Shown here in pieces: positions 2,363 through 21,070 of a stretch of DNA of 24,000 nt. The DNA comes from Coralloluteibacterium thermophilum (lineage in GTDB: Bacteria; Pseudomonadota; Gammaproteobacteria; Xanthomonadales; Xanthomonadaceae): NCBI RefSeq assembly GCF_042654365.1, contig NZ_JBHSGG010000041.1, positions 18,489 through 42,488 of the forward strand, read 5' to 3'. Under the pieces are notes generated by a model that was given only the letters and a program-made list of their open reading frames with translations, ran no database searches and was not told where the DNA came from. A program made the position numbers and the translations under genes. The stretch's first letter is position 1. Every line of letters begins with the position of its first letter.

Positions 2363-2589
2363 GAAGCGGGAATCGGGAATGGGGAATCGGGAATCGGGAA
2401 TGGGAGGCGGCAGCGGAGTGAGCGACGGAGCTCCGCATCCCCACCTCACCAACCTCCAGGTCCCGATCCCCATTCCCGATTTCCGCTTCACCCAACGCCA
2501 TACTGGCCCCTTCGGGACATACAGAGCGCGGCATCCCCGCCTCACCCGCCCCCAGGTCCCGATTCCCGACTCCCCATTCCCGCTTCACC
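2363..2589. repeat. G-heptad inverted-repeat element, copy A (composite, gene-less)
   Basis: G-arm 2363-2405: GAAGCGGGAATCGGGAATGGGGAATCGGGAATCGGGAATGGGA. Two C-arms at 2456-2492 and 2552-2589, whose reverse complements are GGTGAAGCGGAAATCGGGAATGGGGATCGGGACCTGG and GGTGAAGCGGGAATGGGGAGTCGGGAATCGGGACCTGG. Same family as copies at 8454, 12691 and 20275. Confidence 0.8.
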
Positions 2590-7198: not shown

Positions 7199-8452
7199 AT
7201 GTTCCCCAGCAGCATGCGTATCGAAGGCTACGACCCCGAGCTTGCCCAGGCCATCGCCGACGAGCGTCGCCGCCAGGAGGACCATGTCGAGCTCATCGCC
7301 TCCGAGAACTACGCCAGCCCCCGCGTGATGGAGGCCCAGGGCAGCGCGCTGACCAACAAGTACGCCGAGGGCTATCCGGGCAAGCGCTACTACGGCGGCT
7401 GCGAGTACGTCGACGTGGCCGAGCGGCTCGCCATCGACCGCCTGAAGCAGCTGTTCGACGCGGACTACGCCAACGTGCAGCCGCACTCGGGCTCGCAGGC
7501 CAACCAGGCCGTGTACTTCGCGCTGCTGCAGCCGGGCGACACCATCCTCGGCATGTCGCTGGCCCACGGCGGGCACCTCACCCACGGCGCCAAGGTCAAC
7601 GCTTCGGGCAAGCTGTTCGACGCGGTCCAGTACGGCGTGAACGACCAGGGCCTGATCGACTACGACGAGGTCGAGCGCCTCGCCGTCGAGCACAAGCCGA
7701 AGATGATCGTCGCCGGCTTCAGCGCCTATTCGCGGGTGATCGACTGGGCGCGCTTCCGCGCCATCGCCGACAAGGTCGGCGCCTACCTGTTCGTGGACAT
7801 GGCGCACGTGGCCGGCCTGGTCGCCGCGGGCGTCTACCCGAACCCGCTGCCGCACGCCCATGTGGTCACCTCGACCACCCACAAGACCCTGCGCGGTCCG
7901 CGCGGCGGCATCATCCTCGCCAAGGGTGCGGACGAGGAACTGACCAGGAAGTTGCAGTCCATCGTCTTCCCCGGCATCCAGGGCGGCCCGCTGATGCACG
8001 TGATCGCGGCCAAGGCGGTCGCCTTCAAGGAGGCGCTGGAGCCGGCGTTCAAGGCCTACCAGCAGCAGGTGGTGAAGAACGCCCAGGCCATGGCGCGGAC
8101 CATCGTCGAGCGCGGCTACCGGATCGTCTCCGGCGGTACCGAGAATCACCTCATGCTGGTCGACATGATCGGCAAGGGCATCACCGGCAAGGACGCCGAG
8201 GCCGCCCTCGGCCGCGCCCACATCACGGTCAACAAGAACAGCGTCCCCAACGACCCGCAAAAGCCTTTCGTCACCTCCGGCCTGCGCCTCGGCACCCCCG
8301 CCGTCACCACCCGCGGCTACGTCGAGCAGGACTGCATCGACCTCGCCCACTGGATCTGCGACGTCCTCGACGCCCCGGCGGACGAGAGCGTCATCGCCGC
8401 GGTGCGCGAGAAGGTGGTGGCGCAGTGCAGGAGGTATCCGGTCTACGGGTGA
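7199..8452 (+). CDS. glyA: serine hydroxymethyltransferase
   Basis: Lies inside track ORF 5759..8452(+). Start ATG at 7199 ([38 protein letters not shown]...). 417 aa. PLP-lysine region [16 protein letters not shown]. Confidence 0.97.
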
Positions 8453-8453
8453 C

Positions 8454-8927
8454 GCGGGAATGGGGACTCGGGAATCGGGACCTGTGGGCGTTTGAAGGTC
8501 GGAGGGCTCGCCATGGAGGGCGGGATGGCGCAGGATTTCAGGGATCTGCGGGTGTGGGAGGAGGCGATGCAGCTGGCCGAGCGCGTATACGCGCTCGCCG
8601 GGCGCCTTCCGCGGGAGGAGCGCTTCGGCCTGTCGATGCAGATGCGCAAGGCGGCGGTTTCCGTGCCTTCGTGCATTGCGGAAGGCAATGGCAGATCCTC
8701 GCTGGCCGACTATCTTCGCTTCCTTTCCATGGCACGCGGCTCCCTGTCGGAGGTCCAGACACAGCTGCTTCTCGCGGGGCGCCTGGGCTTCCTGTCTCCG
8801 GATGATGTCGATGCCGCCCTTGCGCAGGCGCGCACGGTCGGCATGCTGCTCACCGGCCTTCGACGAGCCCTGGCCTCCAAGACCGCATAATCCCCGCCAT
8901 TCCCGATTCCCCCTTCCCGATTCCCGA
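8454..8927 (+). mobile_element. G-heptad inverted-repeat element, copy B, carrying a four-helix-bundle gene (putative non-autonomous cassette)
   Basis: G-arm 8454-8484 (GCGGGAATGGGGACTCGGGAATCGGGACCTG). C-arm 8891-8927 (reverse complement TCGGGAATCGGGAAGGGGGAATCGGGAATGGCGGGGA). Fills the glyA-nrdR spacer. Mobility is inferred from the multiple copies, not demonstrated. Confidence 0.5.
8525..8890 (+). CDS. four-helix-bundle protein (23S rRNA intervening-sequence protein / Avd-like family)
   Basis: Family-typical pattern DFRDLRVWEEAM...ERFGLSMQMRKAAVSVPSCIAEGNGRSS..DYLRFLSMARGSLSEVQTQLLLAGRLGFL. Start ATG at 8525 is preferred because GGAGG lies 5 nt upstream. Alternatives are ATG 8513 and TTG 8492 (the track start). 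Confidence 0.85.
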   Translation: MAQDFRDLRVWEEAMQLAERVYALAGRLPREERFGLSMQMRKAAVSVPSCIAEGNGRSSLADYLRFLSMARGSLSEVQTQLLLAGRLGFLSPDDVDAALAQARTVGMLLTGLRRALASKTA

Positions 8928-8935
8928 CAGCCCCC

Positions 8936-9469
8936 ATGCACTGCCCCTTCTGCCAGCACGAGGACACCCGGGTCATCGACTCGCGGCTGACCGACGACGG
9001 CACGACGGTGCGGCGGCGGCGGGAGTGCCCGCAGTGCGGGGAGCGCTTCAATACGTTCGAGACGGCCGAGCTCAAGCTGCCGGCCATCGTGAAGAGCGGG
9101 GAGCGGCGGGAGGCCTTCGACGAGCGCAAGCTGCGCACCAGCTTCGAGCGCGCGCTGCAGAAGCGACCGGTGGCGGCCGATGCCGTGGAGCAGGCCCTGC
9201 GCAACGTGGTGGCCGACCTGCGCAAGGCGACCGAGCGCGAGGTGCCCTCGCGCCACGTGGGCGAGCTGGTGATGCGCGAGCTCAAGAAGCTCGACCAGGT
9301 CGCCTACGTGCGCTTCGCCTCGGTCTACCGGCGCTTCGAGGACGTGCAGGCCTTCCGCGAGGAGATCGAGAAGCTCGAGCGCGACATGCCGGGGCTCGAG
9401 GCGGCCCAGCTGTCCCTGCTGGGCGAGGCCGCGGTGCCGCCGCCCGCGGGCAGGCGCGGCCGCGGCTGA
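8936..9469 (+). CDS. nrdR: transcriptional repressor NrdR
   Basis: [42 protein letters not shown] zinc ribbon followed by an ATP-cone. 177 aa. Confidence 0.95.
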
Positions 9470-9581
9470 ACCGCAACGCTGCATCCCGGGCCGCGACCGC
9501 GCCGCCGACGGACCGCACGGGCGCCGCGTGCTAGGCTGCGCGCGCTCCGGCCGTCCATCGGCCGGGCGACCACGATGAACA

Positions 9582-9737
9582 CGTCTTCAGGGCGGGGTGC
9601 GATTCCCCACCGGCGGTAGGTCGATCGGCGCGGCGACGCGCGACGACGAGCCCGCGAGCGCCTCCGGCCACGCCGGAGGGTCAGCAGATCCGGTCCGAAG
9701 CCGGAGCCGACGGTCACAGTCCGGATGAAAGAAGACG
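9582..9737 (+). promoter_or_regulatory. FMN riboswitch (RFN element)
   Basis: Conserved RFN blocks CTTCAGGGCGGGGTGCGATTCCCCACCGGCGGTA, AGCCCGCGAGCGC, GGTCAGCAGATCCGGT, AGCCGGAGCCGACGGTCACAGTCCGGATGAAAGAAGA. P1 CGTCTTC (9582-9588) pairs with GAAGACG (9731-9737). Sits 81 nt upstream of the ribD ATG. Confidence 0.9.
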
Positions 9738-9818
9738 GCACGGCGCGCATCCCTCGCGGGAGGCGCGGCCGTTCCGACGCCTCTGGAGGCGTCGTTCGCC
9801 CCCGAGCGGACCGACGCC

Positions 9819-11595: not shown

Positions 11596-12714
11596 ATGCC
11601 CTTCGCACCCGTACCCGAACTGCTCGAGGAAATCCGCGCCGGCCGCATGGTCGTCGTCGTCGACGACGAGGACCGCGAGAACGAGGGCGACCTCATCATG
11701 GCCGCGGAGCTGGTGCGCCCGCAGGACGTGAACTTCATGGTCACCCACGCGCGCGGGCTGGTGTGCCTGGCGCTGACCCGCGAGCGCTGCGCGCAGCTGG
11801 GGCTGGGGCCGATGGTCCGCGACAACACCGCGCAGTACCAGACCGCCTTCACCGTCTCCATCGAGGCCGCCGAGGGCGTCACCACCGGCATCTCCGCCTA
11901 CGACCGCGCGCACACCATCCGCACCTCGGTGCGACCCGATGCCAGGCCGTCCGACCTGGTGCAGCCCGGCCACATCTTCCCGCTCGCCGCGCATCCGGGC
12001 GGCGTGCTCAGCAGGGCGGGGCACACCGAGGCGGCGGTCGATCTCGCCATGCTCGCCGGGCTGGAGCCCGCCGGCGTCCTGGTCGAGGTGCTCAATCCCG
12101 ACGGCTCCATGGCCCGGCGGCCGGAGCTGGAGGCCTTCGCACGCGAGCACGGGCTCAAGATCGGCTCGATCGAGGACCTGATCGCCTACCGGCTCGCCAC
12201 CGAGCACACCGTGGAGCGCATCGATGCGCGCGGGATCGAGACCGAATTCGGCCCCTTCACCCTCGTCACCTACCGCGACCGCATCGCTCACGACCTGCAC
12301 TTCGCCCTGGTGCGCGGCGCGCCGGACGCCACGACCCCGACCCTGGTGCGCGTGCAGGTGGAGAACCCGCTCGCCGACCTGCTGCACTGGCGCCGCGAGG
12401 ACTTCGGCGTCGCCGGCACCGACGCGCTGCGCGCCATCGCCGAGGCCGGCAGCGGCGTGATGGTGGTGCTGTCCGCGCCGCGCGATCCCGACGCCCTGCT
12501 GGCCCGCCTGCGCGCCGAACCCGCCCCCGCGGACCGCCGCGACGTCGGCGAATGGCGACGCAACGGCGCCGGCGCCCAGATCCTCGCCGAACTCGGCCTC
12601 GGCCCCCTCCGCGTCCTCGGCACCCCCCGCCGGCAGGTCGGGTTGGCGGGGTTCGGGCTGGAGGTGGTGGAGTATGTGGAGCTGGAAAATGCGGGAATGG
12701 GGAATCGGGAATAG
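11596..12714 (+). CDS. ribBA: 3,4-dihydroxy-2-butanone-4-phosphate synthase fused to a GTP cyclohydrolase II-like domain (RibBA/RibBX type)
   Basis: Lies inside track ORF 11098..12714. Start ATG at 11596. DHBP synthase blocks DDEDRENEGDLIMAAE and AGHTEAAVDLA. C-terminal GCH-II-like half. The last 8 codons (AGMGNRE*) are encoded by the repeat arm. Confidence 0.9.
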   Translation: MPFAPVPELLEEIRAGRMVVVVDDEDRENEGDLIMAAELVRPQDVNFMVTHARGLVCLALTRERCAQLGLGPMVRDNTAQYQTAFTVSIEAAEGVTTGISAYDRAHTIRTSVRPDARPSDLVQPGHIFPLAAHPGGVLSRAGHTEAAVDLAMLAGLEPAGVLVEVLNPDGSMARRPELEAFAREHGLKIGSIEDLIAYRLATEHTVERIDARGIETEFGPFTLVTYRDRIAHDLHFALVRGAPDATTPTLVRVQVENPLADLLHWRREDFGVAGTDALRAIAEAGSGVMVVLSAPRDPDALLARLRAEPAPADRRDVGEWRRNGAGAQILAELGLGPLRVLGTPRRQVGLAGFGLEVVEYVELENAGMGNRE

Positions 12715-13014
12715 GGACCTGGAAGTCGGCGCGTGATTGGGGCCTCGCGCTGGCGGCCTCCACGCCCTCGGCGCCCTGCAGCGGGTAGGGCAGGAGTGGA
12801 AGGGGCTCGGGAATAGGGCCTCACGGTCGGCTCGCGGTCGGAGTTCGAGCTTCGGGTGCCGGGGTCGAGAACGGGGCGCGGCGTGCGTGCCTCTCCCTCT
12901 CTCCGTTCCGCTTCGTGCCTCTCCGTCGCCCTCACTCTGCCCCACCTTGCCAGTCCGTCCCGCCCTCCAGGTCCCCATTCCCGATTCCCCATTCCCGCTT
13001 TTCCCGCTTCATCC
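12691..13014. repeat. G-heptad inverted-repeat element, copy C (gene-less, rearranged)
   Basis: G-arm 12691-12722: GCGGGAATGGGGAATCGGGAATAGGGACCTGG. Internal partial arm 12802-12822: GGGGCTCGGGAATAGGGCCTC. C-arm 12967-13014, reverse complement GGATGAAGCGGGAAAAGCGGGAATGGGGAATCGGGAATGGGGACCTGG. Confidence 0.75.
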
Positions 13015-17037: not shown

Positions 17038-17327
17038 GGGGCAGGGGTGGGATTGGGAGGTGGGGAAGTATGGGGCAGGGGCGCCGGGCGCGGGCCCAGG
17101 GCTTGGGGCGCAGGGCTTGGGGCAGAGGGCAGGGGCAGGGGCAGGGGCAGAGGGCAGAGGGCAGAGGGCTTGGGGCAGGGGGCGTAGCGTCGGCCCCGAG
17201 CCCCGAGCCCCGAGCCCCGAGCCCCAGGCCCCAGGCCCCAGGCCCAAAGCCCAAAGCCCAAAGCCCCGAGCCCCGAGCCCCAAGCCCCAAGCCCCAAGCC
17301 CCAAGCCCCAAGCCCAGCCCCAGGCCC
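17038..17327. repeat. head-to-head array of G-rich hexa/heptamer tandem repeats
   Basis: Left half is G-rich on the + strand, including (CAGGGG)x3 and (CAGAGGG)x3 flanked by CTTGGGG. Centre lies around 17184-17192. The right half is 17 in-phase heptamers at 17193-17311: (GCCCCGA)4 (GCCCCAG)3 (GCCCAAA)3 (GCCCCGA)2 (GCCCCAA)5. Confidence 0.9.
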
Positions 17328-20274: not shown

Positions 20275-20428
20275 GAAGCGGGAATGGGGAATCGGGAATC
20301 GGGACCTGGGGCGAGGTACGGCCTGCTGCTGCGCCACCCGGCGACGCCTTCAGACGGAGCGTTCCTCCCCGAAGCCAAGCGACCCAACCATTCCCAATTC
20401 CCGATTCCCGATTCCCCATTCCCGCTTC
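20275..20428. repeat. G-heptad inverted-repeat element, copy D (154-bp MITE-like miniature)
   Basis: Left end GAAGCGGGAATGGGGAATCGGGAATCGGGA (20275-20304). It is identical over 30/30 nt to the reverse complement of the right end (20428 back to 20399). About 80 nt of unique core. Confidence 0.85.
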
Positions 20429-20458: not shown

Positions 20459-20826
20459 GGCGGAGTCGACCAGGCAGTCGCGTCATCCTTCGGGATGCCG
20501 AGGAAAGTCCGGGCTCCACAGAGCAGGGTGCCAGGTAACGCCTGGGCGGCGCGAGCCGACGGAAAGTGCAACAGAGAGCAGACCGCCGATGGCCGTCCGC
20601 CGCTTCGGTGGCGGTCGGATCAGGCAAGGGTGAAACGGTGCGGTAAGAGCGCACCGCGAGTCCGGCAACGGACCGGCACGGCAAACCCCACCCGGAGCAA
20701 GACCGAATAGGGACCTCACGACGTTGCTCGCGTCGGGTCCGGGTAGGTCGCTCGAGCGCTGCGGCGACGCAGCGCCTAGAGGAATGACTGTCCACGACAG
20801 AACCCGGCTTATCGGCCGGCTCCGCC
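20459..20826 (+). ncRNA. rnpB: RNase P RNA, bacterial type A
   Basis: Universal blocks GAGGAAAGTCCGGGCTCCACAGAGCAGGGTGCCAGGTAACGCCTGG, ACAGAGAGCAGACCGCC, GGTGAAACGGTGCGGTAAGAGCGCACCGC, CCCGGAGCAAGACCGAATAGG, AGAGGAATGACTGTCCACGACAGAACCCGGCTTATCGG. P1 GGCGGAG (20459-20465) pairs with CTCCGCC (20820-20826). Confidence 0.93.
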
Positions 20827-21070
20827 CCTTCTTCCTTCTCGCATCGCCGGTTCCGGCGGCGCCGGCGTGCCCGACTTGGGGGCCGCTCCTCGCGCGCCCG
20901 GGCAGGTTCGGGCGCTAGCTGCCTGAATTTCACGGGAAAACGACATCGCGGGCGCCGTCTGTCGCCACGCCTTTCTGAATGAAAACAGTGCCTGCGGGCC
21001 ACTTCTTGAACCTGAGTGTCAAGTTCGCGTTAAGCCCTTGATCCCGCAGGCGATTCCCTCCCGAACCGTG

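Follow-up and report, generated by a model that had tools for sequence, protein, structure and literature searches.

Why does a small gene sit wedged between glyA and nrdR in Coralloluteibacterium thermophilum, bracketed by two arrays of seven-base repeats that mirror one another? The window analysed here, 24,000 nucleotides (nt) of contig NZ_JBHSGG010000041.1 (positions 18,489 to 42,488), contains one such gene, for a four-helix-bundle (4HB) protein, and several similar repeat pairs without a gene. The reading that we favour, and in which our confidence is about evenly balanced, is that gene and arrays together are one example of a widespread unit, consisting of a G-rich heptad array, an open reading frame (ORF) of the PF05635 family and a complementary C-rich array. 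This unit would be of the same type as the intervening sequences (IVSs) of 23S rRNA: read through from the gene upstream, cut by RNase III and bound by the protein that it encodes. A first-pass annotation of the window had placed the glyA stop codon, the two arms, the ORF and the nrdR start codon, and all of these match the window base for base:

7199..8452, plus strand: glyA (serine hydroxymethyltransferase), the host gene 5' of the cassette; stop codon TGA at 8450-8452; its orthologous neighbours are serine hydroxymethyltransferases of PF00464
8454..8484, plus strand: 5' arm, four G-rich heptads GCGGGAA TGGGGAC TCGGGAA TCGGGAC (to 8481) and the inner boundary CTG
8485..8524, plus strand: leader of 40 nt, with the Shine-Dalgarno sequence GGAGG at 8515-8519, 5 nt ahead of the ATG
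8525..8890, plus strand: 4HB protein gene (PF05635, TIGR02436), 121 codons and TAA (8888-8890)
8891..8927, plus strand: 3' arm, C-rich heptads, reverse complement TCGGGAA TCGGGAA GGGGGAA TCGGGAA TGG
8936..9469, plus strand: nrdR, the host gene 3' of the cassette; orthologues have Zn_ribbon_NrdR and ATP-cone domains

The gap between the glyA stop and the 5' arm is 1 nt and that between the 3' arm and the nrdR ATG 8 nt; the 483-bp spacer is entirely cassette. In the predicted fold, 8455-8483 pairs with 8899-8927 to give a stem that encloses the 4HB ORF (z = -4.98). The encoded protein has an NCBI match of 100% identity, named 'four helix bundle protein' in Coralloluteibacterium thermophilus (Lysobacteraceae), and the family to which the first-pass annotation had assigned it is borne out by matches above cut-off to PF05635 (E = 6.7e-34, 116.7 bits against 33.8) and TIGR02436 (E = 3.5e-31, 107.6 bits against 24). 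By sequence homology the nearest solved structure is 2GSC (E = 1.1e-26 over residues 7-118), that of XCC0516 from Xanthomonas campestris, a pentamer of four-helix bundles according to Lin et al. 2006 as cited in PMC4990558. Models for Avd, the accessory protein of diversity-generating retroelements (DGRs), score below their cut-offs (NF033474, 26.7 bits against 80; PF22296 bAvd, 22.2 bits against 40), with a distant Avd homology seen in PHROG 3206 (E = 8e-8). The dN/dS ratio of the ORF between the window and C. stylophorae is 0.112/0.616 = 0.18, indicative of purifying selection. To our knowledge, the S23p/IVS/four-helix-bundle family, known since the 1990s and represented by a crystal structure, has no assigned function outside DGRs.

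Is the association of this gene with heptads peculiar to the one locus? A degenerate-pattern scan, taking one genome per species, gave 80 PF05635 loci (78 usable) from Planctomycetota, Acidobacteriota, Verrucomicrobiota, Clostridia, Selenomonadales, Bacteroidales, Cyanobacteria, Gemmatimonadota and the Alpha-, Beta- and Gammaproteobacteria. By eye, almost every PF05635 gene has tandem heptads just 5' and their reverse complement just 3', with a unit specific to the lineage (GGCAGTC, GGGACTA, GGTGTCA, GGGACCG, TAGTCAT, GGGTGTA and TCAGTTG are examples). Arrays that are plain by eye were picked up at only 20-24 of the 80 loci by a strict lag-7 detector (mismatch penalty -3); the final measure was the match count in a 21-nt window at each lag, with 239 random placements as controls. 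By this measure a period of 7 is the best tandem lag upstream of the gene in 62 of the 78 loci, compared with 11 of the 239 controls, and downstream in 64 of 78, while 15 or more matches out of 21 at lag 7 on both flanks are found at 48 of 78 loci and at none of the 239 controls. The period is not strictly seven, since lag 8 is best in 8/78 loci upstream (8/239 controls) and 7/78 downstream; units of 8 nt are seen in L024, L061, L063 and L176 (for example AGCCACGA and GCAAGTCA).

The two flanks are also complementary to each other. The upstream flank scores a median of 24 against the reverse-complemented downstream flank (controls, 11), and a cassette's own 5' and 3' arms score a median of 23 against one another, compared with 9 against the arm of another locus; the own-arm score exceeds the cross-locus 95th percentile in 63 of the 78 loci. 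The geometry is regular, with median arm lengths of 4.7 (5') and 4.9 (3') units, a 5' arm that ends a median of 22 nt ahead of the start codon, a 3' arm that begins a median of 1 nt past the stop, and an excess of G over C in the 5' arm on the sense strand of the gene in 63 of 66 loci. Homologues on IMG/VR viral contigs follow the same pattern, lag 7 being the best upstream lag in 35 of 45. The first-pass annotation had made its case depend on finding such arms beside other four-helix-bundle genes, and they are there in nearly every lineage sampled; to judge from these sequences, the link between gene and repeat is family-wide and spans many phyla.

The arms appear, moreover, to be specific to the cassette and not to the genome. 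At two Bryobacteraceae loci and one from Verrucomicrobia (L017/L020 and L071) a second paralogue lies between a few hundred and 3,000 bases away and carries a different heptad class. Mean protein identity falls from 63.5% at a heptad distance of 0 to 45% at a distance of 5 (Mantel p <= 0.0005), a relationship confounded by host phylogeny. Array density is 3.43/kb in the flanks of 4HB genes and 0.154/kb elsewhere in the same loci, where 62 heptamer arrays occur in 403 kb. Of the gene-less arrays that lie beyond 160 nt of the gene, 22 of 54 are of the local arm class (expected 2.6 +/- 1.5), in 8 of 21 loci; L013, L016, L040, L046 and L075 show such sharing.

Two further features of the arrays may be recorded here. 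In 23 of 61 cassettes (L006-L085) the consensus heptad of the 3' arm contains a stop trinucleotide on the sense strand, compared with 9.3 +/- 2.2 expected from base composition in this post hoc comparison. Because 7 is not a multiple of 3, an array of such heptads halts every frame, and 3' arm stops may make the end of the ORF robust to changes in unit number. The idea that purine-rich 5' arms exist to give the upstream gene stop codons in every frame was rejected (21/61, 21.5 expected). In low-GC copies a promoter-like box, TAnnTTTG, lies between the 5' arm and the ORF (for example 'tatctttgcg' and 'gtaactttgtg'); the viral contigs L169-L171, L177, L185, L187, L191 and L199 have it, and the copies with this box probably belong to Bacteroidota.

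When did the cassette arrive between glyA and nrdR? The closest homologues at the same slot are those of C. stylophorae (83% protein identity), a Pseudoxanthomonas sp. (61%) and a Stenotrophomonas metagenome-assembled genome (MAG; 64%). The first-pass annotation had considered that relatives might carry the gene without heptad arms. All three orthologous copies have G-heptads 5' and C-heptads 3', although the heptad sequence has drifted (to GGGGAAC in Pseudoxanthomonas) while the arms of the cassette remain complementary. The cassettes of C. thermophilus and C. stylophorae align collinearly, arms included. On this comparison the cassette is orthologous across at least three genera of the Lysobacteraceae; it is thereby shown to have entered the slot long ago and to have been inherited vertically in the lineage since. 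The collinear orthologues and the dN/dS of 0.18 together imply that the 4HB gene is a functional, vertically inherited resident. Thus the earlier description of a discrete inserted unit holds in so far as gene and arms recur together across the family, and fails if taken to mean a recent insertion in the window genome. That literal version would account for a cassette that fills its spacer exactly and for the compact spacers of some relatives, described below, but the collinear, arm-aligned orthologue in C. stylophorae and the 61-64% identical copies in Pseudoxanthomonas and Stenotrophomonas already refute it, and we give it almost no credence.

The slot itself is nevertheless variable among relatives. 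We collected 80 metagenomic loci anchored on NrdR proteins 78-90% identical to that of the window, 77 of which have glyA directly upstream. The first-pass annotation had proposed that empty sites be sought in relatives, and the spacer is 19 nt or shorter in 27 of the 77; these we regard, from their length, as true empty sites. In a further 29 the spacer is 60-210 nt, and 18 of the 28 distinct sequences among these are gene-less inverted heptad hairpins, of four classes (GAGAAGT/GAGTGAA, GGGAATC, GGGATTC and GGGACTC), with the G-rich arm first in 18 of 18. The remaining 21 have spacers above 400 nt with other ORFs; none of the 77 has a 4HB gene in the glyA-nrdR spacer. X. campestris also has a gene-less arrangement here, with an array 9 nt before nrdR and 64 nt after glyA and an inverted partner 33 nt away (PMC4692102). 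Unrelated inserts that lack heptads occur too, in L108 (1800-2498) and 16 similar loci and in L151 and L157; one, an ORF of 232 aa, has a GTCGGFQH motif and probably encodes a glutamine amidotransferase, and others are small hydrophobic ORFs. The glyA-nrdR junction looks like a general insertion hot spot.

Other tight operon junctions have been used in the same way. Pfam scans of the flanking ORFs place 4HB genes between carA and carB in Xanthomonas, directly 5' of carB in Ramlibacter, between nuoC and nuoD in Bosea and between glyA and nrdR in a Hyphomonadaceae MAG; sequence inspection adds carA-carB in Pseudoxanthomonas and nuoC-nuoD in Bradyrhizobium and Rhizobiaceae. Genes named 23S_rRNA_IVP have been described wedged between cmr3 and cmr2 (PMC3936711), and array #15 of Rehm et al. 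2015 is 6 nt away from accB (bccP) and extends over the start annotated for XCC0516 (PMC4692102). The 4HB proteins group by host lineage and not by slot. The alphaproteobacterial protein from glyA-nrdR is 57-66% identical to alphaproteobacterial copies from nuoC-nuoD but only 37-43% identical to gammaproteobacterial copies from glyA-nrdR, and the betaproteobacterial carA-carB protein is only 43-46% identical to gammaproteobacterial copies. The same junctions have therefore been colonised independently, implying movement together with some preference for, or tolerance at, tight operon junctions. By this phylogenetic reasoning the unit has been mobile on evolutionary time scales. JGI gives several 4HB proteins of 135-139 aa (P0026, P0051, P0055 and P0077) the name 'carbamoyl-phosphate synthase large subunit', a label probably carried over because their genes sit between carA and carB. 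On plasmid alpha of Nostoc PCC 7120 (L211, 1495-1900) a 4HB gene keeps its 3' arm (CTCTGCC, about 5 units) while its 5' side abuts a transposase gene; this cassette has been truncated by an insertion sequence.

What, then, are the gene-less arrays? The motif GGGAAKSGGGA has 23 matches in the window, compared with 0.05 expected from shuffles. The first-pass annotation had counted three further copies of the arms. These are real and form the inverted pairs E1, E3 and E4; a fifth inverted heptad structure, E5, of a different class, had been missed:

2363..2586, plus strand: E1, gene-less, upstream of pncB; left G-arm 2363-2405, right C-arm present twice (2456-2489 and 2552-2586); z = -6.5
12691..13010, plus strand: E3, gene-less, between ribBA and ribH; left arm 12691-12722, right arm 12967-13010; z = -7.6
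20275..20428, plus strand: E4, gene-less, between rsmI (stop codon 20269-20271) and the RNase P RNA gene; predicted 33-bp stem; z = -8.8
17092..17327, minus strand: E5, gene-less, of another heptad class, between yraN (UPF0102) and a glcD-like gene; z = -8.0

All five window elements, the 4HB cassette included, lie in spacers between housekeeping genes with the G-rich arm first in the direction of transcription, and all have long predicted stems (z from -5 to -8.8). The four of GGGAAT type are convergent inverted pairs. An alignment of all arms reveals a 35-nt terminus, (T/A)GAAGCGGGAATGGGGAATCGGGAATCGGGACCTGG, common to E1, E3 and E4, and the left arm of the 4HB cassette belongs to the same terminus family, with three differences. 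Because independent slippage cannot give an identical order of variant heptads at four loci, the shared termini must have been copied. No direct duplications are visible by inspection at the ends of E1, E3 and E4, beside the conserved terminus. Nor do these elements hold the remains of 4HB genes, an idea that we rejected when the family hidden Markov model, run against the six-frame translated window, matched 8525-8887 only.

Several observations concern single elements. In E1 each right-arm copy is preceded by a similar segment of about 30 nt (catccccacctcaccaacctccagg and catccccgcctcacccgcccccagg), which we interpret as a local duplication within a gene-less element. The ribBA reading frame enters the left arm of E3, where its TAG (12712-12714) arises from a variant heptad (GGGAATAGGGA); since the frame runs into the arm, the last eight or so codons of ribBA are repeat-derived. 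E4 stops 33 nt short of the RNase P RNA gene (20462-20827; Rfam RF00010, 306 bits). On the minus strand, which is the transcribed one, E5 consists of about 19 CTYGGGG units followed by CTGCCCC/CTGCCCT units with no loop, about 235 bp in all, and is predicted to form a hairpin with about 130 nt per arm. In other organisms (L197, L042) heptads of the E5 class flank 4HB genes, suggesting that the host genome has a second 4HB paralogue elsewhere.

We propose that the unit always points along the host operon, in a transcribed spacer, and is the same kind of element as the ORF-bearing IVS of 23S rRNA, but placed inside a protein-coding operon. A consensus search found no sigma-70 promoter or terminator in the 4HB cassette, from which we infer that it is read through from glyA. 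The arms in the glyA transcript would then pair into an imperfect duplex of about 25-30 bp around the ORF. By analogy with the stems of 23S IVSs, this duplex would be an RNase III substrate, and once cut it would leave glyA, 4HB and nrdR on separate messages. The 4HB protein would, by analogy with Avd, bind the repeated units both of its own arms and of the gene-less hairpins, these being non-autonomous relatives of the cassette. Recognition of repeated units is likely on two grounds, the Avd analogy and the match between arms of about five equivalent units and a nearest solved relative that is pentameric.

A bolder extension, which we regard as doubtful, makes PF05635 pentamers the sequence-specific partners of tandem heptamer repeats, each protein lineage recognising, and perhaps propagating or maintaining, its own class of arrays of about five units in a manner similar to RAYTs and REPINs. 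Tandem heptamers are, as this extension has it, the most abundant class of prokaryotic intergenic periodic repeat. If it is correct, the IVSs of 23S rRNA, the heptamer repeats of cyanobacteria and the GGGAATC repeats of Xanthomonas would be three faces of one system, a symbiosis of gene and hairpin built on a protein that is not a transposase.

Several points weigh against the IVS-type reading. Transcription, cleavage and binding at glyA-4HB-nrdR are all inferred steps, the protein has no recognisable catalytic motif, and no known chemistry of the four-helix-bundle fold accounts for mobility. The gene-less elements contain no 4HB remnant that would support their descent from full cassettes, and 32 of the 54 gene-less arrays near 4HB genes are of another heptad class. 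An excess of G:U wobble, the signature expected of a helix in the sense RNA, found no support: mismatches between the arms comprise 84 G:U and 103 A:C (p = 0.19). Selection for a sense-strand RNA helix is thus undemonstrated, and the mismatches are just as compatible with a role at the DNA level or with a copying process that homogenises the arms. In those copies that have the TAnnTTTG box between arm and ORF, moreover, the 4HB gene's own transcript would lack the 5' arm.

These points bring a REPIN/RAYT-like relationship forward as a serious rival, in which the 4HB protein copies, spreads or maintains the heptad hairpins in trans and the arms act mainly at the level of DNA or cDNA, less as signals for RNA processing. 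It would better explain the shared 35-nt terminus, with one order of variant heptads in the 4HB left arm and in three gene-less pairs, and it sits well with the absence of a wobble signature, with a private heptad class for each paralogue, with gene-less arrays that match the local arm class far above chance, with independent colonisation of the same junctions by different 4HB lineages and with the finding that in different relatives a single slot can be empty, hold only a hairpin or bear the gene. We nevertheless think it unlikely overall. The protein is a small helical bundle for which no nuclease or transposase chemistry is known, the annotated neighbours included no visible reverse transcriptase partner, target-site duplications were not seen at E1, E3 and E4, most nearby gene-less arrays are of another class, and strict co-orientation with host transcription would be unexpected of a DNA transposon. 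The arms might instead serve the 4HB gene alone, through autoregulation or transcript stabilisation, with the gene-less hairpins as old cassettes from which the ORF has been deleted. The position of the arms invites this interpretation, the 5' arm ending near the ribosome-binding region and the 3' arm abutting the stop codon, as does the presence of arms without a gene at glyA-nrdR in X. campestris where other Lysobacteraceae keep the gene (table in PMC4692102). Yet the near-identical termini of E1, E3 and E4, with no trace of an ORF, speak for copying rather than independent decay, and gene-less arrays far outnumber 4HB genes (186 in X. campestris, PMC4692102; four to one in the window), so that we consider private cis-regulation distinctly improbable.

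Could gene and repeat instead have no functional link, with 4HB genes landing, or being tolerated, in the loops of generic intergenic heptad hairpins or in short spacers? Heptamer arrays are indeed common in other spacers, as the 62 in 403 kb outside 4HB flanks attest, and 23S IVSs are known at the tips of existing rRNA helices (cited in PMC4990558). The lack of any functional link is nevertheless very unlikely in our judgement when 63 of 78 unrelated cassettes have matched arms and 0 of 239 controls have arrays on both flanks, when arrays are so much denser beside 4HB genes than elsewhere, when heptads are paralogue-specific within one genome and when protein and heptad similarity covary. That the arms are G-quadruplex-forming regulatory repeats, as has been proposed for the GGGAATC arrays of Xanthomonas, is suggested by the four GGG tracts in each window arm and by the facts that repeat oligonucleotides form G-quadruplexes in vitro and that four units is the modal array length (PMC4692102). 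A GGG run is present, however, in only 34 of the 61 cassette heptad classes, and 11 have no GG at all (for example TAGTCAT, TCAGTTG and AACGTTG); each G-arm also has a complementary arm that competes by duplex formation. With 27 of 61 classes lacking GGG, the G-quadruplex is ruled out as the shared principle, and as an account of the arms we find it highly improbable.

Some features of the locus and its surroundings remain to be described. No Rfam family covers the arms, no rRNA was detected in the window, and PADLOC returned no defence match. The neighbours of the cassette in the window are CreD, glyA, nrdR, a flavin mononucleotide (FMN) riboswitch and ribD-ribE-ribBA-ribH. The 8 nt that follow the C-arm give nrdR no Shine-Dalgarno sequence (window 8928-8938). 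In Pseudoxanthomonas and Stenotrophomonas the 4HB ORF takes in the C-arm as well and ends with a stop codon that overlaps the nrdR ATG (cTGATG; L003 3412-3423 and L004 3410-3423); this overlap suggests that nrdR is translationally coupled to the cassette ORF in those genera. The FMN riboswitch lies ahead of ribD (9579-9740; Rfam RF00050, 90 bits). C. stylophorae has, by eye, an additional FMN-riboswitch-like sequence (L001 5360-5500) in a ribD-ribE spacer of 362 nt, compared with only about 20 nt in the window.

The association ties together a protein family of unassigned function and a set of unexplained bacterial seven-base repeats. It explains small genes wedged into operons at glyA-nrdR, carA-carB, nuoC-nuoD and cmr3-cmr2, as well as the misannotation of some 4HB proteins as carbamoyl-phosphate synthase, and it carries a warning for annotation, because 4HB ORFs, and the genes upstream of them, often extend at their 3' ends into repeat arrays. 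It also yields a hypothesis that can be tested directly and cheaply, namely that the protein binds its cognate repeats and that RNase III processes the paired arms.

How new is it? A full-text literature search, not exhaustive, found no paper that links PF05635 genes generally to heptamer arrays, a remark on the Coxiella IVS aside, and as far as we have searched the general link is undescribed. The first-pass annotation likewise knew of no description of the association. The repeats themselves have already been described (PMC4692102). Rehm et al. 2015 report 186 GGGAATC-type arrays in X. campestris, with a mode of four units and 89-93% of them intergenic, and 70-75 convergent inverted pairs per Xanthomonas genome with the G-strand just after stop codons; most Xanthomonas arrays are transcribed, they form G-quadruplexes in vitro, and their function is unknown (PMC4692102). 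Their table includes one array from the glyA-nrdR spacer and one that overlaps the XCC0516 start (PMC4692102). Related heptamers include the GGGGA(C/T)T repeats of Nostoc (PMC4692102) and, more broadly, the tandem heptamers of intergenic regions (Mori et al., 10.1101/309039). The Rehm class, defined as intergenic runs of (GGGANTN)n that span 14 bp or more and include GGGAATC one or more times, takes in the window arms, which share its mode of about four units, its frequent convergent pairs and a G-strand just past the upstream stop. In those studies, however, the repeats are treated as stand-alone simple sequence repeats or G-quadruplex motifs and the four-helix-bundle gene is unmentioned, whereas here they bracket PF05635 genes across phyla and many of the heptads are not G-rich.

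The resemblance to REP/REPIN-RAYT systems is one of organisation, in that inverted copies of a short repeat border a gene that is vertically inherited in single copy, and this repeat is found also as gene-less hairpin doublets in many spacers, with a repeat class of its own for each gene lineage. The window gene differs in belonging to PF05635 only, with no Y1 or IS200/IS605-like transposase, and the repeat in being a tandem 7-mer array rather than a single palindrome; the window elements are also strictly co-oriented with transcription. Avd is a pentameric barrel in which each of the five protomers touches an RNA stem-loop next to avd, the same residues serving for each flipped-out base in turn (10.1101/2023.10.23.563531). 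Besides distant homology, the nearest solved relative of the window protein shares with Avd its pentameric state, and the structured RNA that Avd binds lies beside avd and overlaps it (10.1101/2023.10.23.563531). The window protein nevertheless scores too low for the Avd models, no Avd locus is known to have heptad arms, and neither a reverse transcriptase nor a pair of template and variable repeats was seen near the window gene among the annotated neighbours, not every window ORF having been scanned.

It is the IVS of 23S rRNA, known with an S23p ORF from Coxiella, Leptospira and Brucella, that comes closest. In both cases a gene of the same family (PF05635) lies between terminal inverted repeats that form a long stem, and the IVS sits inside a highly transcribed unit, as does the window element. 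Cleavage of the IVS stems by RNase III has been shown experimentally, and the Coxiella IVS has tandem heptamers (GACAGAT, 2-3 copies, variable among strains) just 5' of its S23p ORF at the RNase III cleavage site (PMC4990558); by this analogy RNase III would also cleave the paired arms of the cassette. The window element differs in its position, between glyA and nrdR rather than in helix 25 or helix 45 of 23S rRNA, in having two arms that are themselves tandem heptad arrays, in the dispersal of ORF-less copies in its genome, and in an intact ORF with a Shine-Dalgarno sequence and under purifying selection, where the Coxiella ORF is decaying and probably untranslated. Judged by its sequence features, the cassette is best described as an IVS-type element outside rRNA, with arms built of heptad arrays and with gene-less derivatives.

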